DNA from: Acidimicrobiia bacterium
GTDB taxonomy: Bacteria; Actinomycetota; Acidimicrobiia; Spongiisociales; ZC4RG35
NCBI GenBank assembly: GCA_035250485.1
Contig: DATFFB010000214.1
Coordinates: 8,197-72,196, forward strand
Length of the DNA: 64,000 nucleotides
Reading direction: 5' to 3'
Positions within the stretch are counted from its first letter, which is position 1. Each line of letters opens with the position of its first letter. The position numbers were made by a program, and so were the translations under genes. Below, piece by piece: positions 7,984-57,868 of the stretch. Under the pieces are notes generated by a model. The model was not told the origin of the DNA, ran no database searches, and saw nothing but the letters and a program-made list of their open reading frames with translations.

Positions 7984-7992
7984 TCCGCGCTT

Positions 7993-8001
7993 GTGGATAC
8001 T
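7993..8001. promoter_or_regulatory. DnaA box (TTGTGGATA, reverse complement of TATCCACAA)
   Basis: 8/9 match to the TTATCCACA consensus, located in the dnaA-rpmH divergent region. It is followed by an AT-rich segment (tcgatcgtatctatatagg) and a putative TTGACA -35 element for rpmH. Confidence 0.5.
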
Positions 8002-8185
8002 GTCAATGCCCTCAATCGATCGTATCTATATAGGTTTTTCAGGCGACGAGATCCCCGGTGTCACGTCTTTTGCCCATGACGGGGAAACTGCTTTTTTTTC
8101 GCGAGAGCCTTGCTTTGACACAAATTCCGTCGGCGCAATATCCTTGACCCGTCCGCCCACCCCGTATGTCGGGGTGATTGCCACT

Positions 8186-8320
8186 ATGAAAAGAACCTTC
8201 CAACCCAAAGTACGCCGCCGGAAAAGGAACCACGGATTTCGTCACCGTATGGCCGATCGAGCCGGGCGGGCGATCCTCAAGGCTCGTAGGGCCAAGGGTC
8301 GCAAGCGGCTCGCCGCCTGA
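8186..8320 (+). CDS. rpmH: 50S ribosomal protein L34
   Basis: [44 protein letters not shown], 44 aa, canonical L34. Divergent from dnaA. Confidence 0.95.
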
Positions 8321-8322
8321 CG

Positions 8323-8649
8323 CGGCCCCCCGTCGTCCGGCCCGTTTCGCTTAAGAACAGGGCCGATTTTCGCCGGGTTCTCGATACCGGTCGGCGTCGC
8401 AAGGTAGGCGGGCTTTTGGTTGTCCGCAGCCCTGGCGAACCCGACCAGATCCGCATCGGGTTGGTGGCAGGGAAACGAATAGGAAATGCAGTGCAGCGAA
8501 ATCGAATCAGGCGCCGCCTTCGGGCGGCGGCAGGCGACGCCGAGGTGCCAGTCGGTTTCGACTATGTGTTGATCCCGGAACGGGAGGCTGCCGACGTCCC
8601 CTACCCGCGGCTGGTCGAATGGGTGACCGCCGCCTGCCGACTCGACTGA
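8323..8649 (+). CDS. rnpA: Ribonuclease P protein component
   Basis: Translation from immediately after rpmH gives ...SLKNRADFRRVLDTGRRRKVGGLLVVRS...RIRRRLRAAAGD... (RnpA RNR motif). No canonical ATG/GTG/TTG lies upstream of the conserved N-terminus; the first in-frame TTG is at 8416. Start is unresolved, hence lower confidence on boundaries. Confidence 0.75.
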   Translation, partial: RPPVVRPVSLKNRADFRRVLDTGRRRKVGGLLVVRSPGEPDQIRIGLVAGKRIGNAVQRNRIRRRLRAAAGDAEVPVGFDYVLIPEREAADVPYPRLVEWVTAACRLD

Positions 8650-8654
8650 CTCAC

Positions 8655-8921
8655 ATGGCAATTTCAGGGACCCGCACATCAACTCAACAGCGCCCCCTTT
8701 CCGCGCTGGCGGTTTTTCTGATCGTTGTCTATCAGCGATTGCTGAGTGTCCGCCTGGGCCGCAATTGTCGCTATTTCCCGAGCTGCTCGCAGTACGCGAT
8801 CGAGGCGATCGATCTTCACGGCGTTTTCCGCGGGGGCCTGATGGGTCTGCGACGCCTGAGCCGGTGCCACCCATTACATCCTGGGGGGCTTGACCCGGTC
8901 CCTCCCGCCAGGACGCGGTAA
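8655..8921 (+). CDS. yidD: Membrane protein insertion efficiency factor YidD
   Basis: Conserved motif CRYFPSCSQYAIEAIDLHG, about 88 aa. Overlaps the rnpA end and abuts yidC. Confidence 0.8.
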   Translation: MAISGTRTSTQQRPLSALAVFLIVVYQRLLSVRLGRNCRYFPSCSQYAIEAIDLHGVFRGGLMGLRRLSRCHPLHPGGLDPVPPARTR

Positions 8922-9773
8922 ATGGGCGAAATCTTCAACGGTCTCCAGAACGCCCTCGGCAGCGCCCTGGCGTTCTTCTACGACCTAGTTCCCTCCTATG
9001 GGCTGGCGATCATTCTCCTGACCGTGGCGGTGAACCTCCTCTTGTTCCCGCTGACGCTCAAGCAAACCCGTTCGACTAGGGCGTTCACCGCGATTCAGCC
9101 TGAGATTCGTCGCATCCAGAAGGAGTACAAGGACCGGCCCGAGGAGATGCAAAAGGAGTTGATGCGCGTCCAGCGGGAGGCCGGTGCCACTCCTGGGGGG
9201 TGTCTCCTTCCACTCATCGTCCAGTTTCCGATCTGGTTGGCGCTTTTCCAGGTCCTCAACGCCCCGGGCCATATCCCGGAGGGATCGGCTCTGGCGAATG
9301 CCATCGCCGCCGGCGAAAACCGCTTCCTAGGCATGAATCTTGGCACCCGCGTCTCTGAGGCGGTCTCGGCGGGCATCGGCTCAGCCCTTCCATATCTGGG
9401 CATGCTGGCGGTGATGGTGGCCAGCCAGTACATCCAGACCTGGCACGCCACCTCCGGCCAGGCCCGTCCCGACAATCCCCAGGCCGCCGCCGGTCAGGCG
9501 GTCAGTCGGATCATGCCGCTCTTCATCGGGATCGTCTCCTACAACTTTCCGGCCGGATTGGTCCTCTATTGGATGACTGGAAATATTTTCCGGCTACTCC
9601 AACAAATTGTGATCTTCAAGATCGACGGCAGGCCGCAGCTTGTGCCCGCCGATACGGGCCGTCAGGTTGCCGGCAAGGAGGCAACGCGGAGCAAGGCGGA
9701 TAACAAGGAGCCGGAGATCCGAAAGGCGCAGCAGGGTGCGGTCGACAAACGGCGTCGCCGCCGGCGGAAATAG
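8922..9773 (+). CDS. yidC: Membrane protein insertase YidC (short Gram-positive/actinobacterial form)
   Basis: 283 aa with multiple TM helices and YidC/Oxa1 core motifs (…NLLLFPLTLKQ…, …YNFPAGLVLYW…). ATG is adjacent to the yidD TAA stop. Confidence 0.93.
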   Translation: MGEIFNGLQNALGSALAFFYDLVPSYGLAIILLTVAVNLLLFPLTLKQTRSTRAFTAIQPEIRRIQKEYKDRPEEMQKELMRVQREAGATPGGCLLPLIVQFPIWLALFQVLNAPGHIPEGSALANAIAAGENRFLGMNLGTRVSEAVSAGIGSALPYLGMLAVMVASQYIQTWHATSGQARPDNPQAAAGQAVSRIMPLFIGIVSYNFPAGLVLYWMTGNIFRLLQQIVIFKIDGRPQLVPADTGRQVAGKEATRSKADNKEPEIRKAQQGAVDKRRRRRRK

Positions 9774-9791
9774 CAAGAACGAGGAAGTGAA

Positions 9792-10676
9792 ATGGTCGAG
9801 TGGGTAGAGGTTCGCGGAAAGAGCATCGAGGTGGCAGTGGCGGCGGCTATGAACGAGCTGGGGGTAACCGACCGCTCGGACGTCGACGTGGAAGTAGTAC
9901 AGGAACCCGAAAAGGGATTTCTCGGTTTGGGGGGTAGAGACGCCATTGTCAGGGTCAAGCCCCGGGCACGGCGGGCCCGGGGTCGGGACCGGGATCGTCG
10001 GCCCCGTACCGGCGCCAGCCGGACTGGTGGTTCGCGTCCCGAAGGTCGGAGTCGGGAGGCCCCTTCCCGCAGTGGCGGTCAACGGGGCAGTAATGCCCCT
10101 CGTTCCCAGGGTCGCAGCGGTGGAAACGCGCGCTCGGGCGCTCCCAGGACCAGAAGTCCAGAGGCGGCCAGCCGCAGCGAGCGGCCCCCGGTCGATGTCA
10201 ACCCCGCCGAGCAGGCGCCCGTGGTAGAGCAGTTCCTCCGGGGATTGGTTGAATCGTTCGGGCTCGAAGGCTCGGTGCGGGTGGAAATCGAGGAAGACGT
10301 CATCATTGCCACGGTCGAGGGAGAACAAACCGAGGCCCTGGTGGGGGTAAGGGGCTCGGTGCTCGACGCCGTCCACGAGATCACGAAAACCACCCTTCAC
10401 CGCCAGTTCAAGGACACCGCCCGGGTCCGCCTCGACATTGCCGGCTATTCGGAACGACGCCGTCAGGCTCTCAGTATCTACGCCGGCCAGCTCATCGAGC
10501 AGGTGATGAGCGAGGGTGGCGAGATCATGCTCGAACCAATGAGCGCGGCCGATCGGAAAGTCATCCACGACTCGGTGGCCGCGGTCGACGGCGTGCGGTC
10601 CTATTCCGAGGGCGAACCGCCACGGCGATATGTGGTGATCTCTCAGGTCGAAGACGAGGCCGACGACGAGGCTTAA
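9792..10676 (+). CDS. jag: Jag/KhpB-family RNA-binding protein (Jag_N, KH and R3H domains, with an Arg/Ser-rich linker)
   Basis: Conserved post-yidC position. The C-terminal KH/R3H region (…ATVEGEQTEALVGVRGSVLDAVHEITKTTLHRQ…) is recognisable. Confidence 0.9.
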   Translation: MVEWVEVRGKSIEVAVAAAMNELGVTDRSDVDVEVVQEPEKGFLGLGGRDAIVRVKPRARRARGRDRDRRPRTGASRTGGSRPEGRSREAPSRSGGQRGSNAPRSQGRSGGNARSGAPRTRSPEAASRSERPPVDVNPAEQAPVVEQFLRGLVESFGLEGSVRVEIEEDVIIATVEGEQTEALVGVRGSVLDAVHEITKTTLHRQFKDTARVRLDIAGYSERRRQALSIYAGQLIEQVMSEGGEIMLEPMSAADRKVIHDSVAAVDGVRSYSEGEPPRRYVVISQVEDEADDEA

Positions 10677-10691
10677 ACCCTCTAGTTTCAC

Positions 10692-11282
10692 GTGAATCCT
10701 CGCCTGGAGGCTGCCGCCAGGGCCGTCGGGGTCACCCTTGATGACGGCATGAGGCAGCGCCTGGCGACCTTGGGAGGGTGGTTGACGACCGAGGCTCTGG
10801 CGGGCGGTGGGGTCGGCCCCAATGAGGCCGCCAAGATCGAGGAGAGGCACCTGGTGGATTCGATCCTCTTCGCGGCCGGGTGGGCGAGTGCCCCTCCGGT
10901 ATGCTGGGATCTGGGTTCGGGCGCCGGGCTCCCGGGGTTGGTGCTGGCTTGCATCTGGCCCGGCACCAGGCTGGTGCTGGTCGACTCTTCTGCCAAGCGC
11001 TGCGAGCTCGCCCGACGTGGAGGCCGTGTGGTGGGCGTCGATGTTGAAGTGCAGCAGTCCCGGATCGAGGATTTGACCGGGCCTTATTCCGCCATTGTCA
11101 GTCGGGCGACGATCCCCGCGGCGCGATTTGGTGGGATACTGAAACGGTTGCTGGCTCCCGGCGGGGTGGCTGTCATCTCGGGAAGTAGCCACGGCCATCC
11201 TCCGGGTTTTGAGCGCCTGCAGTTCCCGGGCGAGGAATTCTTTGATCGAACCTCCCGGCTTCTTATCATGCGCTCACCTTGA
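10692..11282 (+). CDS. rsmG: 16S rRNA (guanine527-N7)-methyltransferase RsmG (GidB)
   Basis: GTG start; SAM-binding motif DLGSGAGLPGLVLA and conserved synteny jag-rsmG-parA. Confidence 0.9.
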   Translation: MNPRLEAAARAVGVTLDDGMRQRLATLGGWLTTEALAGGGVGPNEAAKIEERHLVDSILFAAGWASAPPVCWDLGSGAGLPGLVLACIWPGTRLVLVDSSAKRCELARRGGRVVGVDVEVQQSRIEDLTGPYSAIVSRATIPAARFGGILKRLLAPGGVAVISGSSHGHPPGFERLQFPGEEFFDRTSRLLIMRSP

Positions 11283-12109
11283 ACGGCTCCTCCGCCATTA
11301 GCCCGGTCGAAGTCGGCTCCGAAACCCCGACGTCCGGCGTCGCCACCGTAGTTGCGCTGGCGAATCAAAAGGGTGGGGTGGGGAAGTCGACCACCGCCAT
11401 CAACCTGGCCGCGGCCCTGGCGATGCAGGGTCAGCGCTCGTTGATCGTCGACCTGGATCCGCAGGGCAATGCCACCTCAGGCCTCGGCATTGATCGGAGC
11501 GGGATCGCCGCTTCGATATATGACGTTCTTTTAAAGGACGTAGCAGTCGAGGACGCTATTGAACCGACCTCGGTCAAGAGCCTCTTTGTCCTCCCCGCCA
11601 CGATCGATCTGGCCGGGGCGGAAATCGAGTTGGTCCCGCTTCTGTCCCGAGAACAGCGGCTCCGTCAAGCCTTCGCTCCGATTCTCGAGGACTATCAGGT
11701 CATCTTTATCGACTGCCCTCCCTCACTTGGACTCCTGACGGTGAACGCCCTCACCGCTGCCCACGAGGTCCTTATCCCGATTCAGTGCGAGTACTACGCC
11801 CTCGAGGGCTTGAGCCAGTTGCTCAACAATGTGGACCTGGTCCGGCGGCAGCTGAATCCTCAACTGGTGATCGAAGGTGTGGTACTGACCATGTACGACT
11901 CCCGGACCAACCTTTCTCGCGACGTCGCCACCCAAGTGCGAAGTCACTTCGGGGATAAGACGTACCGGACCGTGATCCCGCGCTCGGTGCGGATTTCGGA
12001 GGCTCCCTCATATGGGGAGCCGATCGAGGCGCTCGACCCCATGGCTCGGGGGGCGATTGCCTATCGCGAGCTAGGTCGAGAGTTTCGGAGGCGTCATGGT
12101 CTCGACTAG
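11279..12109 (+). CDS. parA: Chromosome partitioning ATPase ParA (Soj)
   Basis: TTG start overlaps the rsmG stop by 4 nt. Deviant Walker A KGGVGKSTTAINLAAAL. Confidence 0.93.
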   Translation: MNGSSAISPVEVGSETPTSGVATVVALANQKGGVGKSTTAINLAAALAMQGQRSLIVDLDPQGNATSGLGIDRSGIAASIYDVLLKDVAVEDAIEPTSVKSLFVLPATIDLAGAEIELVPLLSREQRLRQAFAPILEDYQVIFIDCPPSLGLLTVNALTAAHEVLIPIQCEYYALEGLSQLLNNVDLVRRQLNPQLVIEGVVLTMYDSRTNLSRDVATQVRSHFGDKTYRTVIPRSVRISEAPSYGEPIEALDPMARGAIAYRELGREFRRRHGLD

Positions 12110-12118
12110 GAGGTTCCG

Positions 12119-12964
12119 ATGAGTCAGAAGCGCGGCCTGGGCAGAGGACTGGAAGCGCTGATCCCTTCGACCCCCGATCCCGAGCAAGGTTTCGCCGAGA
12201 TCGAGATCGACGAGATCCGGCCTAACCCGCAACAACCCCGGGGAGATTTCGACGACGAAGCGCTCTCCGGTCTGGCGGAGTCGATCAGGAGCCTCGGCCT
12301 TCTCCAGCCGGTGGTGGTCCGCCCCGATCCCGAGGGGGGCTATTTCCTGGTCGCCGGGGAACGCAGATGGCGGGCGGCTCGCAAGGCAGGGCTCAGTCGG
12401 ATTCCGGCCGTGATCCGGACGAGCGATGATCGGGAATGGCTTACCGCTGCCCTGGTCGAGAACCTGCAGCGGGCCGATCTCAATCCGTTGGAAGAGGCGG
12501 CCGCCTTTCAACAACTTCTGGAAGATTTTGGCTTAACGCACGAGGAGGTGGGTCGGAGAGTTGGGCGAAGCCGGGCGGCGATCACCAATTCGATTCGTCT
12601 ACTCGGGCTCCCTGCCTCGATCCAATCCCGGTTGGCGAGCGGAGAGCTCAGTGCCGGCCACGCCCGGGCTTTGGCGGCGATCGACGACCGGGCCTTCGCC
12701 GAGCACGTCGCCAAGCGGGCGGTGGCAGAAGGTTGGAGCGTTCGTCAGGTCGAGGAGGCGGTGCGTCTGCGGCGAGGTGAAGCCACGTCAGCGCCCCGTC
12801 TGCGCGAGGTTCGCCCCGCCGAGATCATCGAACTCGAGATGCGGCTTGCCGAGCGCTTGGGAAGCAAGGTCCGAGTCGACTTCCGCCAGGGCAAGGGGGC
12901 CCTACGAATCGACTATCGATCCCTCGAAGAGCTGGAGAAGATCTACCGAAGACTAATGAGCTGA
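12119..12964 (+). CDS. parB: Chromosome partitioning protein ParB (Spo0J)
   Basis: ParB box GERRWRAA and HTH region, 281 aa. Confidence 0.93.
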   Translation: MSQKRGLGRGLEALIPSTPDPEQGFAEIEIDEIRPNPQQPRGDFDDEALSGLAESIRSLGLLQPVVVRPDPEGGYFLVAGERRWRAARKAGLSRIPAVIRTSDDREWLTAALVENLQRADLNPLEEAAAFQQLLEDFGLTHEEVGRRVGRSRAAITNSIRLLGLPASIQSRLASGELSAGHARALAAIDDRAFAEHVAKRAVAEGWSVRQVEEAVRLRRGEATSAPRLREVRPAEIIELEMRLAERLGSKVRVDFRQGKGALRIDYRSLEELEKIYRRLMS

Positions 12965-12986
12965 GCACTCTCCGGCCCTCCTAACT

Positions 12987-13985
12987 TTGAGGTCACACAT
13001 GAGGCTTTATCGCCGGAGCGACACCGGAGACGCCGTGCGCGACATCCAGGGCCGCCTGCTCGCGCTTGGCTACCACCCCCAGAGCGATCCGGGGGGAGAG
13101 TTCGGGGCCGCCACCGAAGCGGCCGTGCGGGAATTTCAAAGCGATCGCGGCCTCACCGCCGACGGCGAGGTTGGACCCGAGACCTGGCGAGTGCTTTACG
13201 AAGCCGGTTACCGGTTGGGGGATCGGCTGCTTTTTCTGCGGCGCCCAATGTTGCGGGGAGAGGATGTGGCTGAGCTGCAGGGACGCCTCAGCCAACTCGG
13301 ATTCGATCCCGGCAAGGTGGATGGAATCTTTGGCCTCGAGACCGAGCAAGCGGTCCTCGAGTTTCAGCGCAATCGAGTCCTAACCGAGGATGGGATCGCC
13401 GGCCCCGAGGTTCTCACCGAGCTCCGACTGTTGGTCCGCGGAAAGATGCGAGCCGGACGAGAAACGGTGAGGGAGCGGGAATGGCTGCGGAGCTTGCCCG
13501 ACAGTGTCGTCGGGTCCCGGGTGTTCTTTGATGCAGCCTGTCGCACCCCGGAAGAAGCCCGGGCGACGTGGGTGGCGGCGAGCTCGGCGGCGATGGAGCT
13601 GCAGGCGCGAGGTGGCCAGCCGATTCTGGGTCGTGCCGCCGACACGCGGCTCCCGGAACGAGTACGGGCCGGGCGGGCCAATCGCCTGGGGGCGGAACTG
13701 GTGGTGTCATTTCAGGTTCGGGCGGATGGGGGCCCGGCGGCGGTCTTTTACTTCGCCAGCGATCGGGGAGTCTCACGGGCAGGGGAGATGCTCGCCAACC
13801 GAATCGCCGAGACCGCCGGGGGGCTTGTGGAGGGGCGCGCTACCGCCATCCTGCGCGATACCAGGGCGCCGTCGGTGATCGTTTCACATCCCGAGCTCGG
13901 AACCGAAATCGGACGCCTGGTGGTTGACGGCCTGGCGCAGTTCTTCGCTACGGCAGCCTTGGAAACCTCAGATTCGAAGACTTAA
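12987..13985 (+). CDS. cwlM: N-acetylmuramoyl-L-alanine amidase with two peptidoglycan-binding domains (CwlM-like)
   Basis: Two PG_binding_1 repeats (…GDAVRDIQGRLLALGY…, …GEDVAELQGRLSQLGF…) followed by an amidase_3-like C-terminus. Same neighbourhood (parB / trx / sigM) as mycobacterial cwlM. Confidence 0.8.
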   Translation: MRSHMRLYRRSDTGDAVRDIQGRLLALGYHPQSDPGGEFGAATEAAVREFQSDRGLTADGEVGPETWRVLYEAGYRLGDRLLFLRRPMLRGEDVAELQGRLSQLGFDPGKVDGIFGLETEQAVLEFQRNRVLTEDGIAGPEVLTELRLLVRGKMRAGRETVREREWLRSLPDSVVGSRVFFDAACRTPEEARATWVAASSAAMELQARGGQPILGRAADTRLPERVRAGRANRLGAELVVSFQVRADGGPAAVFYFASDRGVSRAGEMLANRIAETAGGLVEGRATAILRDTRAPSVIVSHPELGTEIGRLVVDGLAQFFATAALETSDSKT

Positions 13986-14058
13986 GACAAGAGACAAAAG
14001 ACGAAAGACAAAAGAAAAAAGAGTCTCTGGTCTTTCAGCCCGCCGAAGGCGGGCGATC
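13986..14058. repeat. Dispersed AT-rich heptamer-repeat element, copy A: (RAAAGAC)n tract plus GC hairpin
   Basis: gacaagagacaaaagacgaaagacaaaagaaaaaagag followed by gtctctggtctttcagcccgccgaaggcgggcgatctt. Sits between convergent cwlM and trxA stops; the hairpin GCCCGCC-gaag-GCGGGC could act as a bidirectional terminator. Confidence 0.6.
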
Positions 14059-14385
14059 TTAAGCCAGAAATTCCGACAGTTCGGAGACGAGGTTGTGCTT
14101 AGGGCGGGCGCCGATGATTCGCTTCTTCTCGACTCCATCCTGAAAGAGGATCAGGGTCGGGATGCTCATCACGTCATACTCGCCGGAAATCTGCGGATTC
14201 TCGTCGACATTGAGCTTGCCGATTCGAAGCTTGCCGTCGTACTCGGTGGCCATCTCGTCGAGGATGGGGGCAATCAACCGACAGGGTCCGCACCACTCGG
14301 CCCAAAAATCGACCAGGATGGGAGTTCCTCCCGCAATGGTCTGATCGAAGCTCGACTTGTCGAGGATGACGGTGTTTTCAGTCAT
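14059..14385 (-). CDS. trxA: Thioredoxin
   Basis: WCGPC active site, 108 aa. Confidence 0.93.
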   Translation of the reverse strand: MTENTVILDKSSFDQTIAGGTPILVDFWAEWCGPCRLIAPILDEMATEYDGKLRIGKLNVDENPQISGEYDVMSIPTLILFQDGVEKKRIIGARPKHNLVSELSEFLA

Positions 14386-15374: not shown

Positions 15375-15646
15375 GAAGCCTTTTTCCTATTGCCCCACAA
15401 GATGAACCCGAAGATGAGCACGACGAGGCCGAGGACACCGAAGGCCCCATCGGAACCGAGCGGAATGGCCAGGGCGCCGTAAATGGAAAGCACAAGAAAC
15501 ACCAGCGCCAGCAACCCCAGAGTGAGAGCTGCCATTCCCAACGAAGAGAGGCGGATCCAGCGGCTGATTCGATCGACGGTGAGCGACCGAATCCGGGTAG
15601 CGACCATCTCCAGAAAATCGGCAAACCGGGCTGGAAAGTCGTCCAC
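15371..15646 (-). CDS. Small hypothetical membrane protein (2 predicted TM helices)
   Basis: GTG start; 91 aa with two hydrophobic helices. Overlaps the trxB start by 4 nt, suggesting translational coupling. Confidence 0.5.
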
Positions 15647-15654
15647 CTGTTCAG

Positions 15655-15745
15655 ATTAGATCTGAGACAAAAGACGAAAGACAAAAGACGAAAGATCGGA
15701 GATGTCTTGGGGTCCTTCAGCCGCCGGAGGCGGGCGATCTTCTGT
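15655..15745. repeat. Dispersed AT-rich heptamer-repeat element, copy B
   Basis: gagacaaaagacgaaagacaaaagacgaaagat followed by gtcttggggtccttcagccgccggaggcgggcgatctt. The tail is about 85% identical to the tail of copy A. Lies between the anti-sigma stop and the small membrane protein start. Confidence 0.6.
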
Positions 15746-15753
15746 CGGTCGCC

Positions 15754-16473
15754 CTATGGCAACACGATTTCGGAGCAGTCGTCGAGGAAGAACGCGCGCG
15801 GGGAGAGTTCGCCGTCGTCTTCCACCAGGAGCAACAACACCTGCCGGCCCTGATAGGTGCTTTCCCCTCGTTCCTCGATGGCGAGGTCCTCGGTCTCCTC
15901 GACGCAGGAGACCGACGCGTCTCCTGCGGGCGTACCTTCGTCAGCCAGCGCCTCGGCCTCGGCTTTGAGCTCGTCGAGGTCCCCTCCAGCTTCAAGTTGC
16001 GCGAGTGTGGCCGAGGCGGCGGTGGTGGCGGTCGCTCGTTCCGTATTGGTGGCGCCGCCAGCGGCGAACTCGGGAGCGGCCGCGTCGGCGGCCATGGACG
16101 TGGTGGCGGCATTGCCCGATCCCTGCTGGCTAGCGATGGTCGCGCCCACCCCAACCACAACCGCCAGTGCAGCGGCGGCGGCCATCATCCGGCCCCAGAT
16201 CGGGCTCATGGGTTTGGTCTCGGTCTTGCGCCGCATCGGAACCGGCAGGGCGGCGGTGATCGCTGTCGCCATTTGTGACTGCTCGCGCTCGGTCAATTGG
16301 GCGGAGCCGACCCCCGCCAGAAGCGAGCGCAGCTGCAATTGCTCTTCGAACAACACCCGGCACTCCGCGCACCCCGAGATCAGGGCTTCGGCCGCGACTC
16401 GATCGGGTTCATAGCCTGAGGCATGAGCCGCCAAAAGCTCGAGATCGTGCGCGTCGTGATTCATCCTGCTCAT
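15754..16473 (-). CDS. Anti-sigma factor (membrane-spanning, RsmA-like)
   Basis: Immediately downstream of the ECF sigma with a 4-nt overlap. N-terminal cytoplasmic domain with a C-x2-C motif (GCAECRV), a central TM segment (…AAAAALAVVVGVGATIA…) and an Ala/Thr-rich extracytoplasmic tail. Confidence 0.6.
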   Translation of the reverse strand: MSRMNHDAHDLELLAAHASGYEPDRVAAEALISGCAECRVLFEEQLQLRSLLAGVGSAQLTEREQSQMATAITAALPVPMRRKTETKPMSPIWGRMMAAAAALAVVVGVGATIASQQGSGNAATTSMAADAAAPEFAAGGATNTERATATTAASATLAQLEAGGDLDELKAEAEALADEGTPAGDASVSCVEETEDLAIEERGESTYQGRQVLLLLVEDDGELSPRAFFLDDCSEIVLP

Positions 16474-18349: not shown

Positions 18350-19075
18350 TCAGAAAGCGGTGCCGAACGCGGCCATGATCACCAGGCCGTCTCGAACCGG
18401 ATGGAATCCGTTGCGCAGATACAAGGCTTTTGCTCGGTCGTTGTTCTGCTGGGTGTTGACGAGGAGCGTTGCTGCCCCCTGACGGCGGGCCCACAGGAGA
18501 GCTGCCGCCACCAGGGATCCTCCGCCGCCCTGTCCTTGGGCCCGCGGGGAAACGGCGAGGCGCTGCAGGTAGCCGATCCCGAGGCCGACTCCGGCGATGG
18601 CGAACCCGGCGAGACCGGCGTGGTCGCTAAAGGTGTAAATCACGTGGCGAGGGGTGGCTTCGAGGCTCTCTCGCAAACCCAGGAGGCCCATTCTCCATCG
18701 AACTGGAAACGCCTCGCGGTCCAGAAGGTTCAATTCCTCCAAAGCGGCTGACTTCTCGACTGGGATCTGAGGGCGGGCGAGATGTCGCAGGTCGTGCTCG
18801 AAGAGGGCGAGCGGCTCGGCGACTTCGTATCCCGCCTGCCTCCAAAGCTCGCTGCGGTGTCGGAGTACGGCGGGAGAAAGGACGGGCTTGGACCATTCGC
18901 TCACCAGGGAACTGGCCTCGGCGAGAAACTTGGCCCCGCCTCGTTCCAGCCGGAGGGTGGCGGCGACGACGTCATCGTTCCAGGGACGGGCGTGCGCACG
19001 GCCCCAGCCATGCGTAAGCAGCACCGGTTGCGGCCAGCTTCCTCTGGTCCTAACTCCGTAGGAGGTGGCGGTCAC
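18350..19075 (-). CDS. GNAT-family N-acetyltransferase
   Basis: C-terminal acetyl-CoA binding motif (…LAVSPRAQGQGGGGSLV…ALYLRNGF…). Its stop abuts the pseudokinase start. Confidence 0.8.
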   Translation of the reverse strand: MTATSYGVRTRGSWPQPVLLTHGWGRAHARPWNDDVVAATLRLERGGAKFLAEASSLVSEWSKPVLSPAVLRHRSELWRQAGYEVAEPLALFEHDLRHLARPQIPVEKSAALEELNLLDREAFPVRWRMGLLGLRESLEATPRHVIYTFSDHAGLAGFAIAGVGLGIGYLQRLAVSPRAQGQGGGGSLVAAALLWARRQGAATLLVNTQQNNDRAKALYLRNGFHPVRDGLVIMAAFGTAF

Positions 19076-19088
19076 TGTGTGGGAGAGT

Positions 19089-20099
19089 ATGGGTGTGGAG
19101 GTCGTCTACCTGTCGCACGACGTCTTCTACAAGCACTTCGCTGGCGCCCGCCACATCGAGCGTCCCGAACGTCTGCGGGCGGTCGAGGAAGGCGTCTTCC
19201 GCTCGGGACTTGACATCCAGGCGGTAGTCCCGGATCCGGCGGATCGGGCGGCGTTGTCGACGGTGCACGACCCCACCTACATCGACGCCCTGAGGGAATT
19301 CTGCTTGTCGGGGGGTGGGTCGATCGATTCTGACACCCACGCCGTGACAGAGACCTGGGAGGCTTCGATTAGGGCCGCAGGATCGGGCTTGACCGCGATC
19401 CCCTTGCTTGGGGGAGGGGGCGTGGCGATGGCAGCGGTGCGACCACCGGGACACCACGCCACCGCCAACCGGGCGATGGGGTTTTGCTTTCTCAACAACG
19501 TGGCGGTGGCGGTCGCCCATCTGCGAGGTCAGGGTCGGAAGGTGGCTGTCGTTGACTGGGACGTCCATCACGGCAACGGGACCCAGGAGATGTTCGGGGA
19601 TGATCCCGATGTGCTTTACGTCAGCATCCATCAGTCACCGTTCTATCCGTTGACGGGGCACATCGAGGACATCGAGGCGGGAGCGGGAACCATTGTCAAC
19701 CTCCCGGTGCCCATTGGGACCGGTGGCGACCTCTATCGACGCGCCTTCTCCGAATTGATCGAGCCAATCATCACTCAGTTTCAGCCCGATTGGCTCTTGA
19801 TCAGCGCTGGTTACGACGCCCACGCCTCCGATCCTTTGGGAGGGCTCCGGCTTGCGGCCGCGGACTACGGGTACATGTCTGCCCGTCTGCGAGAGCTGCT
19901 TCCCGATGTCCCGGCAATCGTCTTCCTGGAAGGGGGCTACGACCTCGAGGCCCTGGCTTCGGGAGTTGACGCCACGCTTCGGGGACTGCGTGGAGTCGAT
20001 CGGTTCTCCGATGAGACCGACGGCACCAGCTCTCCCGATGCTGCCTTTTGGGCGCTGGAGGTGGCCAAGGAGTACGCCGCTCGCTTCTGGTCGCTGTGA
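19089..20099 (+). CDS. Histone deacetylase-family protein (acetoin utilization AcuC / acetylpolyamine amidohydrolase-like)
   Basis: HDAC motifs (…RPPGHHA…, …VVDWDVHHGNGTQ…, …GGYD…). Likely start is MGVEVVYLSHD at 19089. Confidence 0.88.
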   Translation: MGVEVVYLSHDVFYKHFAGARHIERPERLRAVEEGVFRSGLDIQAVVPDPADRAALSTVHDPTYIDALREFCLSGGGSIDSDTHAVTETWEASIRAAGSGLTAIPLLGGGGVAMAAVRPPGHHATANRAMGFCFLNNVAVAVAHLRGQGRKVAVVDWDVHHGNGTQEMFGDDPDVLYVSIHQSPFYPLTGHIEDIEAGAGTIVNLPVPIGTGGDLYRRAFSELIEPIITQFQPDWLLISAGYDAHASDPLGGLRLAAADYGYMSARLRELLPDVPAIVFLEGGYDLEALASGVDATLRGLRGVDRFSDETDGTSSPDAAFWALEVAKEYAARFWSL

Positions 20100-20101
20100 G
20101 A

Positions 20102-20827
20102 AACCGGGGATACCCAACCTCTTCGAATCGAGCGTCGTCTTTTCATCTCCACTGGCTCCCCCGAGCCGAGCTGGGAAGCCTCGGGGTCACGATCACCATC
20201 CCGCAGAATCCGGTGTCGTCCGACCTTTACTTCTGGGCCCTTCAGGCCAGCTTCGCCGGACGAGAAGGAGTCAGCGGCGGCGCGCATCTCGGACTGCAAT
20301 GGCATAACCAGTACCCGGGTGGAACCGCGGTGAACTGGGGCGGGTACGACGCCAGGGGGATGATCCTCTCGGGGACCGATTCGGATCTCCCCTCCCCGAT
20401 CGGGAATCCGCACACGCGGGCCTATCCCTGGCGGCAGGGAGGCTCATATCGGTTGACGATCGAAGGGGACCGCAACCTGGGACCCGGCTGGTGGAGAGGG
20501 GCAGTCACCGATCTCGAAACCGGAGAGGAGCAAGCGGTCCGCAGCCTCCACAGTCCGGGGGATCGACTGATGGCGGCGATGACCTGGACCGAGGCGTTCT
20601 GCCGCTGCGACGCCGAGCCGGTGGCGGCGATTTGGTCGAACCCGAGCGGCGTCACCACCAACGGAGACCATTACGTGGCCGAGTCCTGCTCGACCACCTA
20701 TCAGCTGGAAGCGGACGGAGGATGCTCCAACACCGACAGTCGCGTCCTGCCGCATGGAATCACCCAGATCACCGGTGTGCCTCGAACCAATCCCCCCGGC
20801 ACGCTTTTGCCGTGGACTTCGATCTAG
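20102..20827 (+). CDS. Hypothetical protein (start unresolved; possibly a truncated remnant)
   Basis: The reading frame looks protein-like (…YFWALQASFAGREGVSGGAHLGLQWHNQYPGG…GSYRLTIEGDRNLGPGWWRGAVTD…). The only ATG making a long ORF (20048) would overlap the deacetylase gene by 52 nt in another frame; the next in-frame ATG is at about 20353. Convergent 4-nt overlap with pilT. Confidence 0.35.
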   Translation, partial: NRGYPTSSNRASSFHLHWLPRAELGSLGVTITIPQNPVSSDLYFWALQASFAGREGVSGGAHLGLQWHNQYPGGTAVNWGGYDARGMILSGTDSDLPSPIGNPHTRAYPWRQGGSYRLTIEGDRNLGPGWWRGAVTDLETGEEQAVRSLHSPGDRLMAAMTWTEAFCRCDAEPVAAIWSNPSGVTTNGDHYVAESCSTTYQLEADGGCSNTDSRVLPHGITQITGVPRTNPPGTLLPWTSI

Positions 20828-37250: not shown

Positions 37251-37940
37251 CTATTTCGTAACCATCTCGGGTTCGAGATGGGTCGTCTCGGCAAACGCCC
37301 GCAACGAAAATGCATGGGCATGGGCGATGGGAAGAGTCACGATGCGGGCGACGCCGGTGTGGGGCAGCTCGAAGCGGTCCCACTCCCAGGGGGTCGGGGC
37401 CATCCCCAGAAGATGACCCAGCACCACGGCGTTGGTTCCGCCGTGGGCGACGAGCACGATGCGGTACTCGTCATCGAGATTGTCGATGGTCCAGAGTCGC
37501 GGGTCGGTACCGGCTTCTTTGAGGCCTTTCTCCGCCAGGCTGGCTTCCAGGCCGCCCACCACGCGCTGATGAAAGTCGCGAAAATCCTCCCCGCCCGGCA
37601 TCCCTTCCCAGAGTTCTTTGATCGGTCGCAGGTTGGCGTCGACCCAGGCGCTGCGGATGTCATCGATCGGCATCCCTTCCCAGTCGTCGGGGTTGCGGAT
37701 CTCGTGGGCCCAGTCGAGGGTCTTGATATCGGTCCCGAGGGCCGCCGCCAACGGACTCGCCGTCTCCTGAGAGCGCTTCATCGGCGAAGCCCAGATCTCG
37801 TCGACGTAGCCCCAGGACTCGACGCGGGCCGCCAACCGCTCGGCTTGTTGGCGACCGAGATCGGAGAGGTTGGGGTCGTTGCGGGCGAAGGTGTCGGGGG
37901 CCCAGTCGGGAAGACCGTGCCGGACGAGGATCAGTTCCAC
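37251..37940 (-). CDS. Histidine phosphatase family protein (phosphoglycerate mutase-like)
   Basis: RHG motif (…LILVRHGLPDW…) and catalytic His (…LVAHGGT…). Probable GTG start at 37940; the longer TTG-initiated ORF to 37973 would begin inside the repeat element. Confidence 0.8.
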   Translation of the reverse strand: MELILVRHGLPDWAPDTFARNDPNLSDLGRQQAERLAARVESWGYVDEIWASPMKRSQETASPLAAALGTDIKTLDWAHEIRNPDDWEGMPIDDIRSAWVDANLRPIKELWEGMPGGEDFRDFHQRVVGGLEASLAEKGLKEAGTDPRLWTIDNLDDEYRIVLVAHGGTNAVVLGHLLGMAPTPWEWDRFELPHTGVARIVTLPIAHAHAFSLRAFAETTHLEPEMVTK

Positions 37941-37954
37941 GAGGGGCGACGGTA

Positions 37955-38045
37955 CAAGAAAGACAAAAGACAAAAGACGAAAGACTTCAGATATCAGACA
38001 TCAGAGTGGGAGAAAGGAGTGGCCGCCCGGTAGGGGGCGGCCACT
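37955..38045. repeat. Dispersed AT-rich heptamer-repeat element, copy C (most complete: both heptamer types plus hairpin)
   Basis: aagaaagacaaaagacaaaagacgaaagac + ttcagatatcagacatcagag + hairpin gtggccgcccggtagggggcggccac. Lies in the divergent region between the histidine phosphatase gene and pyrE. Confidence 0.6.
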
Positions 38046-38130
38046 ACTGTCAGCGTCGACCACAGCGGGAGGAGAAACCGACTGTGCGTCGACCTATTAC
38101 ATCGACCGGCGACGCCGAAAAGTTGAGCGC

Positions 38131-47275: not shown

Positions 47276-47346
47276 AGCGGATGAGGGGAATCGAACCCCC
47301 ACTTCAGGCTTGGGAAGCCCGTGTTCTGCCGTTGAACTACATCCGC
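47276..47346 (-). tRNA. tRNA-Gly (anticodon CCC); CCA not encoded
   Basis: Hand-folded: acceptor stem GCGGATG/CATCCGC, D-arm GTTC-AACGGCA-GAAC, anticodon stem CGGGC/GCCTG with loop TTCCCAA, T-arm GGGGG-TTCGATT-CCCCT. Coordinates +/- 1. Confidence 0.85.
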
Positions 47347-54381: not shown

Positions 54382-56346
54382 CTAGACCGGGGGTTCGGTT
54401 CCCATCCCGAGTTTGCGGAGAAAGGCTTCGTTGTTGGGTTCGCGGCCGAGAAAGGCCCGTAAGTGCTCCATCCCGTCCCGGCTCCCACCCCGCTCGAGAA
54501 CCTCCCGGCGGTAATCGGCGCCGACCTCGGGATTGGTGACCCCTTCTTTCTCGAACCGGCTCCACATGTCGTCCCCGTACACCTCCGACCAGAGATAGCC
54601 GTAGTAGCCGGCGTCATATCCCCCCAATAGGTGTCCAAAGGACGCCGGATAGAAGGTGTCGGGGTGGACCGGAAAGAGACTGACTTGCGTCGAGCGGACG
54701 TGGATATCGTCGAGGTCCTTTTGCGGTGTCTCGTCGTGCATCCACATGTCGAGCAGCCCGAATTGGGCCTGGCGCAGTGTCAGCAAGGCAATGTTGAGGT
54801 TCTTGGCGGCGGTGAGCTGGGAGACCAGCTCGGGCGGGATCGGTTGACCGGATTGATAGTGACGGGCGAAGCGGGCCAAGACCTGGGGCTGCCAGGTCCA
54901 GTTCTCCATGATCTGGCTGGGGGCCTCGACGAAGTCGCCCTCCGTGGAGGTGCCGGAGAACTTGGTGAGCTCGGCCCTGGTCAGGGTTTGATGGAGAATG
55001 TGGCCGAACTCGTGAAAGAAGGTCTCGACCTCTTGGTGCTGGAGGAGGGAAGGTCGTTCGGTCCCGGGCTTGGTGAAGTTCGCGACGATCGCCGCCATTG
55101 GCTTCTGGTAGCTGCCGTCGGCAAGCCGACGTCCGGGAATCAGCGGGAAGGCGGCGGCATGGCTGAACTTTCCCTCCCGCGGGAAGAGATCCATGAAGAA
55201 ATGGGCGATTTCTTGGCCGGTGGCGTCGTCGTCGATGGCATAGGCGAGAACGTCTGGGTGCCAGGAAGGTCGATCGACCTTCCGATAACGGAGCCCGAAG
55301 ACCTCGCCGGTCAGCTCGAGCATCCCGTCGAGGACTTGCTGGAGAGGGAAGTGAGCCGCCACTTCGGTCGGGTCGACGCCATAGTCGCGCCGGCGAAGCT
55401 GGGTGTCGTAGTAACGGAAGTCGTAGCCCTGGAGCTCGCCGTCGAACCCATCGGCTCGCAGCATCTCGGTGAGCTTTCCGAGCTCGGTTTGGCCGATCTC
55501 GGAAAGACCGGGGAGCAGGGCGGCGTAGAAGGAGCGGACCGCCTCTGGATTCTTGGCCATCTTCTCTTCGAGCTGGTGGTGCGCCCACGAAGGTTGAGAG
55601 AAGATCTCGGCGATCCTCTGACGCGCCGCGATTGCTTCCTCGAGTAGCGGTCGGTTGGGTTCAACTGCTCGACTGTTGAACTTACGGGAGAGCTCCTCGC
55701 GGAGATCGCGGCGGGGTGAGTTCTCCATGAACGGGACCACGTCGGGATACGCCATGGTCACCTTTAACGTGCCCTCGGTGTCTCCGGCTTCAAGTCCCTC
55801 GATATAGGACTCCGGCATCCCCTCGAGATCATCCCGGGTGACCAGTAGGTGGTCTTGATGCTCGTCGATGTTGCGCTGGAAGAGCACTCCCAGCTCAACC
55901 AGTCGCTCGGTGAGCTTTTTGACCTCGGCCCGCGAGTCATCGTCGAGCTCGTGTCCCGCCTTGCGCAGGTCCCGGAGGAGAAACTCGAGCATCCGGCGGC
56001 GCTCACCTGTTAGGCCTGCGGCCTCCGGGGATTCCGAGTAGGACTTGATGGCGCGGTAGAAATCAGGCCGAAAGACCAGCTCCACGGCCCACTTCTGGAT
56101 TCGCTCCTCGGCGGCATTGCCGGCATCGCGGACCTCCTTCTCGGTGTGGACATAACCCATGAATGCTGTCCGGCCATAGGTACGAACCAATAGATCCTCG
56201 ATGTCGTTCAGCGGAGCAAGAACGCTGTCGTAAGTGGCTTCGGCCGTCGGATCCACGACTCCGGCCACGAGTCGATCCGCTTCAGAAAGGGCGGCGTCGA
56301 GATCCTCACTGATCCCCGAAGCGGTCACCTGGGTGTAGTCGAACAT
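54382..56346 (-). CDS. M3-family oligoendopeptidase / peptidyl-dipeptidase
   Basis: HEFGH zinc motif (…FFHEFGHILHQ…) and M3 fold, 654 aa. Confidence 0.9.
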   Translation of the reverse strand: MFDYTQVTASGISEDLDAALSEADRLVAGVVDPTAEATYDSVLAPLNDIEDLLVRTYGRTAFMGYVHTEKEVRDAGNAAEERIQKWAVELVFRPDFYRAIKSYSESPEAAGLTGERRRMLEFLLRDLRKAGHELDDDSRAEVKKLTERLVELGVLFQRNIDEHQDHLLVTRDDLEGMPESYIEGLEAGDTEGTLKVTMAYPDVVPFMENSPRRDLREELSRKFNSRAVEPNRPLLEEAIAARQRIAEIFSQPSWAHHQLEEKMAKNPEAVRSFYAALLPGLSEIGQTELGKLTEMLRADGFDGELQGYDFRYYDTQLRRRDYGVDPTEVAAHFPLQQVLDGMLELTGEVFGLRYRKVDRPSWHPDVLAYAIDDDATGQEIAHFFMDLFPREGKFSHAAAFPLIPGRRLADGSYQKPMAAIVANFTKPGTERPSLLQHQEVETFFHEFGHILHQTLTRAELTKFSGTSTEGDFVEAPSQIMENWTWQPQVLARFARHYQSGQPIPPELVSQLTAAKNLNIALLTLRQAQFGLLDMWMHDETPQKDLDDIHVRSTQVSLFPVHPDTFYPASFGHLLGGYDAGYYGYLWSEVYGDDMWSRFEKEGVTNPEVGADYRREVLERGGSRDGMEHLRAFLGREPNNEAFLRKLGMGTEPPV

Positions 56347-56420
56347 TGCCCGAAGATATCAGACGCCGGATTTCAGAAGACAAAAGCAAAAGACATCAGA
56401 TATCAGATGTCAGACTTCAG
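56347..56420. repeat. Dispersed AT-rich heptamer-repeat element, copy D ((TCAGAY)n-rich, no hairpin)
   Basis: gatatcagacgccggatttcagaagacaaaagcaaaagacatcagatatcagatgtcagacttcagatga. Fills the 70-bp gap between the amidohydrolase stop (which it overlaps) and the M3 peptidase start inside a minus-strand operon. Confidence 0.6.
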
Positions 56421-57868
56421 ATGAAGGTGGGTGGGGTGGTGAGTTCCAGCCGCTGGCCGCGGCGGTACGAGGCGAGGACCCTCGTGCCGGCGACGTCAGC
56501 GGTCCGCAAAGGGTCGCGATCGATGACGATCACGTTGGAAGGTCCGCCCACCTTGAGAGACGGCCCGTAGAGCTCGTAGGCGGATCCGGCGCTGAGGCCA
56601 CCGATTCGCGCCGCCGCCATTCCTTCCCAGGGATTTGGGGTTTCTACCGGGCAGTCCGAGCCTCCCCGCAGCGGTATGCCTTCTTCTTCCATCCGACCCA
56701 GCGCATAGGTGTGTCCGACCCGGCGTCCGAGCCTCTTCTTGAGCCAGGTCACCTCCGATGTGATGAAGCTCGGCTGCACTGAGGCGGTGATGCCGAGGTG
56801 GGCCATGCGCCGGCGGGCGGTGGGGGTGAGCACGGACGCATGCTCGATGCGAAGAGCAGCTTCGTTTGCGCCTGCGACCATCAGGTCACGAAGGAGGTCG
56901 AGAACTGCGTCGTTGGCTCGATCACCAATGGCGTGGATGGCCACCGCCCCGCCGAGGTCGAGAGCCGCTCGTGCCATCTCGTCGGCGTGGGGGCGACGCA
57001 GGCGCATGATGCCCACATTGTCGGGGTCATCGCTGAAGCCTTCATGGAGAGCTGCGGTACGACCACCGAGGGCTCCGTCGGCAAACTCCTTCCACCCGTC
57101 GAACCTCAGGTTGCTGCCTGCACCCTGCAGCGCTGCGGCAGCAGAGCCCAGACTCGGAGGATCGGGTGCCGTCACTAGTACCTCGAAATCAAGAGGCACC
57201 CTGGGGGCCAGGGAGATCAGGGTGGTCAATTCCTCCGGCACCTCGCAAAAGAGCGGGTCGCCCGCCGAAACGATGGCAGTGATCGTCCCCAGCCCCAGGC
57301 TGGCCAGGCCCACGAGCGACTGTTCGACGATTTCAGGGGCCAAGGGGGACTGCCTTGAGCCGACCTCACGCAGAACGGGCGCGATCTCTTCTTCGCGCAG
57401 GATGCCGTCAGGGTGATCGCTGAGGCCGGCCAATGCCAGAGCCGCACTGTTGGCGACGGCGACGTGGACGCAGTAGCGATGGAGCAAGAGCGGCGTCGTC
57501 CCCACCATCTCGTCTAGCTCCCAGCGGTTGGGGAGACGTAGTTCGGAAAGGGCCTCGTCGTCGAGGCGGGTGGCCGTCAATGATTCGCCCGGTTGCAAAC
57601 GCGCTGCCGCCGCCTGCAGCCGCTTTCGGAGGCCATCGAAATCGGGCACATCTTTGAGGGTGAGCCGGGAGACGGCAGCGGCGTAGCCCAGGGGATGGAA
57701 GTGGTGATCGTGACGAGGTGCGCTGAGGAAGCCTTCGTGTTGGCTCACCTCGTAGGTGCCGTCGAACTCGGCGCGACGACCGATGGCCACAATCCGATCA
57801 GCGTCGATCAGGACCGAGTCGGCGTCGGGGATGCCGACGATGCCCGAGGAGGTGAGAAGACGTCTCAT
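56417..57868 (-). CDS. Amidohydrolase-family protein (amidohydrolase_3)
   Basis: Metal-dependent hydrolase motifs (…DHHFHPLG…, …AIHAIGD…, …GSDCP…). Start MRRLLTSSG at 57868 overlaps the upstream stop (ATGA). Confidence 0.85.
   Translation of the reverse strand: MRRLLTSSGIVGIPDADSVLIDADRIVAIGRRAEFDGTYEVSQHEGFLSAPRHDHHFHPLGYAAAVSRLTLKDVPDFDGLRKRLQAAAARLQPGESLTATRLDDEALSELRLPNRWELDEMVGTTPLLLHRYCVHVAVANSAALALAGLSDHPDGILREEEIAPVLREVGSRQSPLAPEIVEQSLVGLASLGLGTITAIVSAGDPLFCEVPEELTTLISLAPRVPLDFEVLVTAPDPPSLGSAAAALQGAGSNLRFDGWKEFADGALGGRTAALHEGFSDDPDNVGIMRLRRPHADEMARAALDLGGAVAIHAIGDRANDAVLDLLRDLMVAGANEAALRIEHASVLTPTARRRMAHLGITASVQPSFITSEVTWLKKRLGRRVGHTYALGRMEEEGIPLRGGSDCPVETPNPWEGMAAARIGGLSAGSAYELYGPSLKVGGPSNVIVIDRDPLRTADVAGTRVLASYRRGQRLELTTPPTFI

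Follow-up and report, generated by a model that had tools for sequence, protein, structure and literature searches.

What, if anything, reads a row of seven-nucleotide units set between one gene and the next? The question is raised by an intergenic stretch (positions 37955-38045) in a window of 64,000 nucleotides from the genome of an Acidimicrobiia bacterium (contig DATFFB010000214.1, assembly GCA_035250485.1; all positions are those of this window), where AT-rich arrays with a period of 7 nt recur at four intergenic loci, here named A to D (Table 1), the sequences of which were confirmed at their coordinates. Heptanucleotide repeats located beside start codons form a class that has been described without being explained, as neither a mechanism nor a protein that reads them has been established. 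The Acidimicrobiia arrays belong to this class, and the four loci make up one lineage-restricted family of tandem heptanucleotide repeats, with the unit 5'-R-T-C-T-N-N-N-3' when read on the minus strand. This family makes the question of heptamer repeats testable, through the constraint on its TCT core, the match of that core to the preference of cold-shock proteins, and a defined placement with respect to −10 boxes.

Tandem Repeats Finder (TRF) delimits arrays of period 7 at 13977/13984-14022, 15665-15695, 37959-38005 and 56391-56422, and no other array of that period in the window. The copy number that it returns is 3.4-5.6 at the four loci, the core being phased across 5-8 units, and all four display the contiguous direct 7-nt units, in at least two to three copies, that define the class. 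The first-pass annotation had separated two types of array. Each is in excess, AAGACRAAAGAC with at most one mismatch being found 11 times in the window against 0.51 expected, and TCAGAYDTCAGA 7 times against 1.23. Yet the motif AGAY is common to both and keeps a strict 7-nt phase, unbroken across their junction: the two make a single family in a single register, (NNNAGAY)n on the plus strand and (RTCTNNN)n on the minus strand, of which GTCTTTY and RTCTGAY are two flavours. The pattern AGAYNNNAGAYNNNAGAY, that is AGAY-N3-AGAY-N3-AGAY, has 15 matches where 0.05 is expected, a figure reached in none of 100 shuffles, and all 15 lie on the plus strand and within the four loci. In a control extended to 64 trinucleotides and periods 5 to 10, AGA at period 7 alone stands out (14 run starts); the runners-up GAC, AAG and AAA (3-4 starts) stem from the same arrays, and unrelated cores have at most 2 starts. 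The dispersed, intergenic and strictly 7-nt periodic family that had first been noticed is thus borne out by TRF, motif counts and shuffles alike. A G+C (guanine plus cytosine) content of about 67% had been attributed to its surroundings; the measured value is 63%, and the arrays form AT-rich islands of 40-70 bp. As to the idea of transcribed motifs with (ARN)n-like spacing, it does not agree with a period of 7, nor with the sense strand of the adjacent genes, which reads RUCUNNN and is not A-rich.

Constraint is very unevenly distributed within the unit. We counted 37 units in 11 arrays, delimited by TRF alone and without reference to the core, in the window and in its relatives L121/L122, L130, L141, L263 and L265; these units are not fully independent, some arrays being orthologous or derived by slippage. 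In 10 of the 11 arrays no trinucleotide is phased more strongly than TCT, which occupies positions 2-4 in 35-37 of the 37 units. Only 3 of 66 departures from the consensus fall in these positions, against about 28 if they were evenly spread, and the information content is 1.7-2.0 bits at positions 2-4, against 0.5-1.0 bits at positions 1 and 5-7. Position 5, for instance, is G in 21 units, T in 11 and C in 5; GTCTTTT is the commonest unit, and GTCTTTC is among the commonest. A count of hand-cut units, in which none of 75 departures falls in positions 2-4, is circular in register and is not relied on. The asymmetry is large, and unlike the neutral decay of a duplicated unit.

This matters for the simplest account of such repeats, that they are neutral or selfish products of slippage, devoid of function and close to start codons merely because the spacers of a compact genome are short (those that hold the arrays have just 70-110 nt). 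The contigs of relatives, retrieved through proteins flanking the loci, speak on both sides of this account. Turnover is fast: relatives with about 97% identical proteins are only 92-93% identical in DNA, and within this otherwise collinear DNA the B and C spacers appear as breaks in the alignment. At locus A the closest relative has arrays in both orientations, and an apparent indel of 7 nt separates L124 from L122. Locus B of the closest relative contains RTCTGAN units over 166 nt, again pointing both ways and enclosing two GC hairpins; where TrxB identity is 87% and 81%, the relatives have no array. At locus C a relative with a 96% identical phosphatase carries (RTCTGAT)n in place of (GTCTTTY)n, plus an extra hairpin; a second, at 86%, has no array, and a third, at 80% (L265), has one reaching exactly as far as the ATG. 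It had been considered that the motif might occur in this window and in no related genome. In fact, relatives with about 75-93% DNA identity carry arrays in the corresponding spacers, with strand unchanged, units reshuffled and TCT fixed every 7 nt. All lineages examined have an array in the D spacer, set between the stop of the amidohydrolase gene and the ATG of the peptidase gene (97%, 93%, there partly decayed, and 89% peptidase identity), made of different units in identical strand and phase, such as gtctcaa atctgtt gtcttga gtctctt gtctgtt gtctttt atctctt in L141. As the B and C spacers interrupt collinear DNA, we see the arrays as fast-evolving in content and persistent in place.

Slippage has been proposed before. 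Among the long simple repeats of many prokaryotes, Actinobacteria included, those of heptanucleotides are reported to be the most abundant, with polymerase slippage as the suggested origin (Mrazek 2007, as summarized in PMC4679880), and microsatellites of the (RTCTNNN)n type are abundant, at all G+C contents, among the metagenome matches listed in our scans. With that class of repeats, whose units have 5-11 nt, the present family shares, as far as the summary goes, a mostly intergenic location, free-living hosts with large genomes and a proposed origin by slippage; it differs from a class there defined by length statistics in that its arrays are short, imperfect, constrained in position and kept at orthologous sites. 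That TCT is fixed and the rest of the unit free argues against pure slippage noise, as does the retention of the arrays at the same spacers, on the same strand, down to about 75-80% DNA identity. Repeats without function are therefore, in our opinion, a possible account, if a somewhat doubtful one.

Where do the arrays lie with respect to genes? The first-pass annotation observed that all four have the same strand orientation regardless of gene direction, which is literally true and yet misleading, since three of the four stand directly upstream of minus-strand genes: locus B between the gene of a 239-residue protein (minus strand) and an operon of a small membrane protein, trxB and trxA; locus C between a minus-strand histidine phosphatase gene and a divergent plus-strand gene; and locus D between two minus-strand genes, those of an amidohydrolase and of an M3 peptidase. 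There the minus strand is the sense (non-template) strand of the adjacent gene, on which the repeat reads (RTCTNNN)n. In a survey of 104 called genes of relatives (L122, L127, L129, L130, L140 and L141), the hexamer TANNNT was separated from the start codon by 6 nt in 13 cases, 7 nt in 8, 8 nt in 2 and 9 nt in 6, and was nearly absent elsewhere in the 40 nt upstream. A TANNNT box at a gap of 6-9 nt is the geometry of actinobacterial leaderless promoters, and this placement suggests that leaderless genes amount to some 30%. Such a box, itself 6-8 nt before the start codon, marks the exact end of arrays B, C and D, which lies 12-17 nt before the GTG or ATG. This distance agrees with the class, in which a few nt to about 30 separate most repeats from the start codon downstream; locus A is the exception. 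From its sequence context, each of these three genes is probably leaderless. The arrays reach from the stop codon or 3' hairpin of the upstream gene to the −10 box and span about −15 to −60/−85; at B (TA-ATCT) and D (T-ATCT-T) the box is itself built from array units.

It is tempting, then, to consider the arrays as double-stranded promoter elements: an AT-rich block upstream of the −10 box of leaderless promoters deprived of a −35 element, acting like an UP element, as an easily melted region sensitive to supercoiling, or as a spacer of tunable length, while also providing raw material for −10 boxes. The exact abutment just described and the placement of TANNNT before about 30 of the 104 genes speak for this idea. 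So does the conservation of the boxes in relatives with and without arrays: the B box, TAAYCT with a 6-nt gap, is shared by L121/L122 and the array-less L127; that of C is TAGCGT in the orthologues, with a gap of 7 in L263 and of 6 in L264, which has no array; and that of D, TATCTT, recurs in L140 (gap 8) and L141 (gap 7), L130 having TATTGT (gap 9). In Nostoc PCC 7120, moreover, heptamers arrayed contiguously close to the start codon or −10 box of many genes affect the activity of regulated promoters in reporter constructs (bioRxiv 10.1101/2022.06.06.494920). However, the other leaderless promoters of the lineage have neither an AT-rich upstream region nor an evident −35 element, so that the arrays are something extra rather than a generic part of the promoter. 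A generic effect of AT content, furthermore, explains neither the 7-bp phase, nor the invariant TCT, nor the fixed strand, and locus A has no promoter. A scan of loci A, B and C for the sigma-70 promoter consensus gave no match, no consensus −35 was evident before the TANNNT boxes of the surveyed genes, and the −35-like hexamers TTGTCT that the arrays contain stand at spacers of 6, 13 or 20, not 16-18. We consider a role as double-stranded promoter element doubtful.

RTCTGA resembles the −10 elements of Escherichia coli sigma-E. A promoter for a sigma factor of the extracytoplasmic function (ECF) type was considered on this basis and dropped, no −35 partner of the GGAAC type being found upstream of any array.

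The GC hairpins were thought to be part of the repeat. Three of the four loci, A, B and C, indeed have one, and D has none, but the hairpins are heterogeneous. Those of A and B share a module, RTCTNNG-GTCYTTC-A-[GC stem-loop]-G-ATCT, lying just 3' of the stops of trxA and of the gene of the 239-residue protein: hairpin A is 4 nt past the trxA stop and hairpin B about 20 nt past the other stop (15754-15756). Relatives have unrelated hairpins at these positions, and both are probably the 3' hairpins of these two genes. Hairpin C is unrelated in sequence. It is kept, with the Shine-Dalgarno-bearing leader of the divergent plus-strand gene (GTG near 38085), in L264, the relative that has no array, and it is therefore not part of the repeat. 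In our reading the GC hairpins are no part of the repeat unit, and probably belong to the 3' ends of genes next to the arrays.

This bears on the proposal of a miniature mobile element, whether of the REP/BIME kind (repetitive extragenic palindrome, bacterial interspersed mosaic element) or a miniature inverted-repeat transposable element, which the first-pass annotation listed among its options. A dispersed mosaic of heptamer arrays and GC hairpins has this look, and the hairpin module is inverted with respect to the flanking genes between the window and the closest relative. The REP/BIME sequences of Enterobacteria are likewise intergenic mosaics of hairpins and short motifs, variable between strains and placed at 3' ends or between cistrons. 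But they have a palindromic unit of 20-40 nt in every copy, when here only A and B share a hairpin module, and a head of the GTAG type, which is missing; conversely, heptamer arrays, the main component here, are absent from REPs. The loci are bounded by no terminal inverted repeats, those present being internal (target-site duplications were not searched for); their ends are not constant; copies differ by heptamer units and not by presence or absence of a fixed element; hairpins differ in sequence, one of them being independent of the array; and we saw no gene for a transposase or RAYT in the window, where no systematic search for one was made. A mobile element deserves next to no credence.

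If the three genes are leaderless, the arrays are upstream of the transcription start as placed here, which excludes them from the 5' untranslated region of the downstream gene, and they can be present in RNA through read-through alone. Loci A, B and D would allow read-through, C less clearly so. A scan of loci A, B and C for the intrinsic terminator consensus, a GC hairpin directly followed by a run of T, found none, the T-rich array beginning 17-25 nt past the hairpin, and in the centroid folds of C and D the arrays are mostly unpaired. Could they be clusters of cleavage sites for RNase E, lying in intercistronic or read-through RNA downstream of a protective hairpin, where cleavage would uncouple neighbouring cistrons and destroy read-through or antisense RNA? 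The mycobacterial enzyme cuts RN|CNU in intergenic single-stranded RNA (PMC10641625), and G-U|C-U-U fits this motif. Read on the sense strand, loci A, B and C have the hairpin first and the array after it, and locus A, past trxA and antisense to the convergent gene, would be well placed for the removal of read-through. However, locus D lacks a hairpin, and the motif strongly constrains only the C at +1, leaving the invariant U at −1 and +2, and the 7-nt phase, unexplained. R at −2 and C at +1 are present in nearly all units; the preferred U at +3 corresponds to the variable position 5 and is found in just 11 of 37. Clustered cleavage sites are an unlikely explanation. Still less can be said for Rho loading (rut) sites, in which phased UC dinucleotides would occupy the primary binding sites of Rho. 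Each unit does offer one 5'-YC-3' on RNA that is pyrimidine-rich in sequence and unstructured in the folds, but the units are neither C-rich nor G-poor, C:G being 1:1 in GTCTTTT and 1:2 in GTCTGAT. Predictors of rut sites usually expect C or YC at a spacing of about 11-13 nt, and this identification is hardly believable.

We are led to ask what kind of reader would account at once for a measure of 7 nt, for T-C-T at positions 2-4 and for strand specificity. The cold-shock domain is the one bacterial module known to fit these demands. The consensus heptanucleotide of Bacillus subtilis CspB is 5'-GTCTTTG/T-3', with strong preference at C3, T2, T4 and T6 (PMC1904285); GUCUUUA has been co-crystallised with the protein (3pf4), which binds DNA about 10-fold better than RNA (PMC7825780). 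Ligand and Acidimicrobiia unit both have 7 nt and G/T/C/T at positions 1-4, the same positions being the most constrained, and our comparison with PMC1904285 places the match at C3, T2 and T4. We therefore favour, tentatively and as a possibility rather than a probability, the view that the arrays are phased binding platforms for a cold-shock-domain protein or another single-strand-binding protein with an OB fold (oligonucleotide/oligosaccharide-binding fold). Each heptamer would be one docking site; as one domain of the cold-shock type covers 6-7 nt, an array could load a row of proteins, either on read-through RNA coming from the upstream gene or on the melted, T-rich non-template strand of DNA, and at the adjacent gene the loaded proteins might adjust termination, processing or initiation. 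A single core held in strict 7-nt phase through both flavours of unit is in favour of this scenario, as is the mostly unpaired state of the arrays in the folds of C and D, and cold-shock and S1 proteins have already been put forward as readers of another heptanucleotide repeat, TAACTGA (PMC4679880).

Several points weigh against such a platform. If the three genes are leaderless the arrays precede the transcription start, read-through being then their only way into RNA, and locus C has no minus-strand gene upstream. Locus A, for its part, is upstream of no gene. No more than about half of the units have T at position 6, and the orientation with respect to the adjacent gene is based on three independent loci only. 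A search of the 64-kb window found no cold-shock gene. Cold-shock proteins have limited sequence selectivity (PMC7825780), and the preference of CspB is an in vitro property, of modest selectivity, of a single protein from a Firmicute, no natural tandem array being known as a target of these proteins.

A reader of double-stranded DNA, be it a nucleoid-associated protein similar to Lsr2, with a preference for AT-rich DNA, or a conventional transcription factor, had also to be considered, as the islands are promoter-proximal in a 63% G+C genome and units of the RTCTGAY flavour have the dyad symmetry GAY|RTC. Yet a binder of AT-rich DNA has no need of an invariant TCT or of a phase of 7 bp, repeats of this length set successive sites 240 degrees apart on the helix, and no regulator gene is linked to the arrays. 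Known direct-repeat operators are spaced by 10-11 bp. Sites of this sort are very unlikely, and the balance favours a single-strand-binding protein over a nucleoid-associated double-strand binder. Were the cold-shock link true, the arrays would be the first natural high-affinity targets of abundant and poorly targeted proteins; should it fail, the family would still be a clean example of simple repeats that seed −10 boxes in a GC-rich genome.

No described element could be matched to the arrays at first, but the class to which they belong is known. Heptanucleotide repeats of cyanobacteria, the STRR (short tandemly repeated repetitive) sequences, were reportedly described by Mazel in 1990. A close parallel is with TAACTGA, found in 169 sets in a Beggiatoaceae genome, most within a few nt upstream of start codons, and present in marine Beggiatoaceae, some Cyanobacteria and Bacteroidetes, with S1, cold-shock proteins or CsrA suggested as readers (MacGregor 2015, PMC4679880). 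Both families consist of tandem direct 7-nt intergenic units, mostly a few nt upstream of start codons, and the genes downstream have no common theme. In the class the sets are many per genome; here four are seen in 64 kb, to which the 22-kb loci of relatives add only the orthologous sets. TRTCTGA, of the RTCTGAY flavour, differs from TAACTGA at one or two positions, the TAACTGA unit itself being unmatched here. The differences lie in the lineage; in a degenerate unit with only TCT fixed as against one exact heptamer; in the abutment on a leaderless −10 box, where TAACTGA replaces the Shine-Dalgarno site; and in the additional presence of Acidimicrobiia arrays between convergent genes and in mosaics with GC hairpins. 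Because most genes of the lineage have no Shine-Dalgarno site, a comparison on this ground is uninformative. The heptamers of Nostoc (bioRxiv 10.1101/2022.06.06.494920) are likewise contiguous, within 30-100 nt of start codons or −10 boxes, and present at many genes. They differ in phylum and motif (TTTTGAA, GACYAAT, CCCCART and others), no fixed three-base core with a variable tail being reported. Deletion of the Nostoc heptamers alters regulator-dependent reporter activity. What is new with respect to the class is thus the lineage, the degenerate unit with its fixed three-base core, the set relation to leaderless −10 boxes and the mosaics with hairpins.

Similar arrays exist far from this lineage. 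A scan of a genome collection (596 Gb) with AGACRAAAGACRAAAGAC, an unspecific pattern the listed matches of which are mostly AT-rich Bacteroidota, has among these listed matches (GTCTTTY)n or (CGTCTYT)n arrays in high-GC genomes of unrelated phyla: Sorangium cellulosum So ce26 at two loci (L036, L111), Catenulispora (L092), Kouleothrix (L003/L105), metagenome-assembled genomes of Chloroflexota (L054/L059), Acidobacteriota (L021/L030), Phycisphaerae (L013) and Verrucomicrobium (L007). Several of the arrays in high-GC genomes are inverted pairs, able to form long hairpins. In further scans, of metagenomes with (RTCTNNN)x5 and of viral sequences with x6, the matches listed are preselected by the pattern and of descriptive use only. 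Among the metagenome matches listed (L143-L262; 132 arrays), the neighbouring gene boundary is a sense start in 56 cases, an antisense stop in 67, a sense stop in 38 and an antisense start in 30, and gene boundaries adjoin the 3' side of the RTCT strand at about double the frequency of its 5' side; these counts are exploratory, with crude calling of open reading frames in a heterogeneous sample. One may go further and imagine that the 7-nt period of the commonest long simple repeats of bacteria is the footprint of a cold-shock-domain or OB-fold protein, phased-UCU arrays being cis-regulatory loading pads used across phyla beside promoters, start codons and gene ends; this we hold to be an improbable generalization.

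Table 1. Arrays, hairpins and putative promoter cores at the four loci (minus-strand features are read 5' to 3' on that strand)
Feature	Positions	Strand	Sequence
Array A	13977..14022	−	TTCTTTT GTCTTTC GTCTTTT GTCTCTT GTCTTAA GTCTT
Hairpin module A	14023..14061	+	GTCTCTG GTCTTTC A[GCCCGCC GAAG GCGGGC]G ATCTTAA; hairpin 14038-14054
Putative leaderless promoter core, small membrane protein-trxB-trxA operon	15644..15658	−	TAATCT (15653-15658), gaacag, GTG (15644-15646)
Array B	15659..15703	−	ATCTCCG ATCTTTC GTCTTTT GTCTTTC GTCTTTT GTCTCAG ATC, directly into −10 box
Hairpin module B	15704..15746	+	hairpin 15720-15736, GCCGCC GGA GGCGGGC, then GATCT
Putative promoter core, His_Phos_1 gene	37938..37954	−	TACCGT (37949-37954), cgcccctc, GTG (37938-37940; VELILVRHG)
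Array C (the locus first noted)	37955..38007	−	CTCTGAT GTCTGAT ATCTGAA GTCTTTC GTCTTTT GTCTTTT GTCTTTC TTG
GC hairpin C	38019..38044		GTGGCCGCCC-GGTAGG-GGGCGGCCAC
Putative leaderless promoter core, M3 peptidase gene	56344..56358	−	TATCTT (56353-56358), cgggca, ATG (56344-56346)
Array D	56353..56423	−	ATCTGAA GTCTGAC ATCTGAT ATCTGAT GTCTTTT GCTTTT GTCTTCT GAAATCC GGC GTCTGAT ATCTTCG

The arrays also encroach on genes. At locus D the amidohydrolase stop TGA (56417-56419) lies within the first unit of the array, the last units of which form the −10 box. Locus A separates convergent genes, a cwlM-like gene with a PG_binding domain on the plus strand (stop 13983-13985) and the thioredoxin gene trxA on the minus strand (open reading frame ending at 14059), and the first units of array A overlap the last codons of the former. 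The C-terminus of the cwlM-like protein is accordingly heptamer-encoded, reading LETSDSKT before the stop in the window (13960-13985), with a longer tail derived from the repeat in L122 (1772-1830); since these last codons are heptamer units, turnover of the array alters the end of the protein. The two plus-strand RTCT units of hairpin module A are inverted with respect to array A, with which they could pair.

At gathering score, Rfam yields one match in the whole window, a tRNA (47276-47346, minus strand). Permissive scans of the four loci gave chance-level scores of 17-21 bits against thresholds of 57-65. On the minus strand at 38014-38097, sub-threshold matches to CcsR1 (18.7 bits against a threshold of 65.3) and ar14 run antisense to the Shine-Dalgarno-bearing leader and GC hairpin of the plus-strand gene near 38085, and are taken to be chance matches due to CCUCCUCCC, the complement of the Shine-Dalgarno site.

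Proteins encoded beside the arrays find their best named matches in metagenome-assembled genomes of Acidimicrobiia. The window spans the region of the chromosomal replication origin (oriC), the order of genes being established by synteny with a relative. The origin region (5074-13985) contains, on the minus strand, dnaN (5074-6153) and dnaA (6343-7983), followed by an AT-rich segment (7991-8126); the plus-strand side after dnaA runs from rpmH through yidC, jag, gidB, parA and parB to the cwlM-like gene. Next, on the minus strand, are trxA, trxB, and the genes of the small membrane protein, the 239-residue protein and an ECF sigma factor, a neighbourhood of trx, cwlM and parB which corresponds to the sigM-trxB2-trxC-cwlM-parB arrangement of mycobacteria. 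All four arrays are located on one replichore, 6-48 kb from the origin, and the three genes that they precede are head-on to replication. A link with primase, with the orientation of replication or with the origin, in the manner of parS, was considered and dropped, as the four arrays come from a single window. Finally, in L140, the relative at 93%, the dCTP deaminase gene (18891-20435) encodes 514 residues as against 191, with a faint LAGLIDADG_3 match between two DCD halves; the insertion is probably an intein or a homing endonuclease, absent from the lineage of the window.

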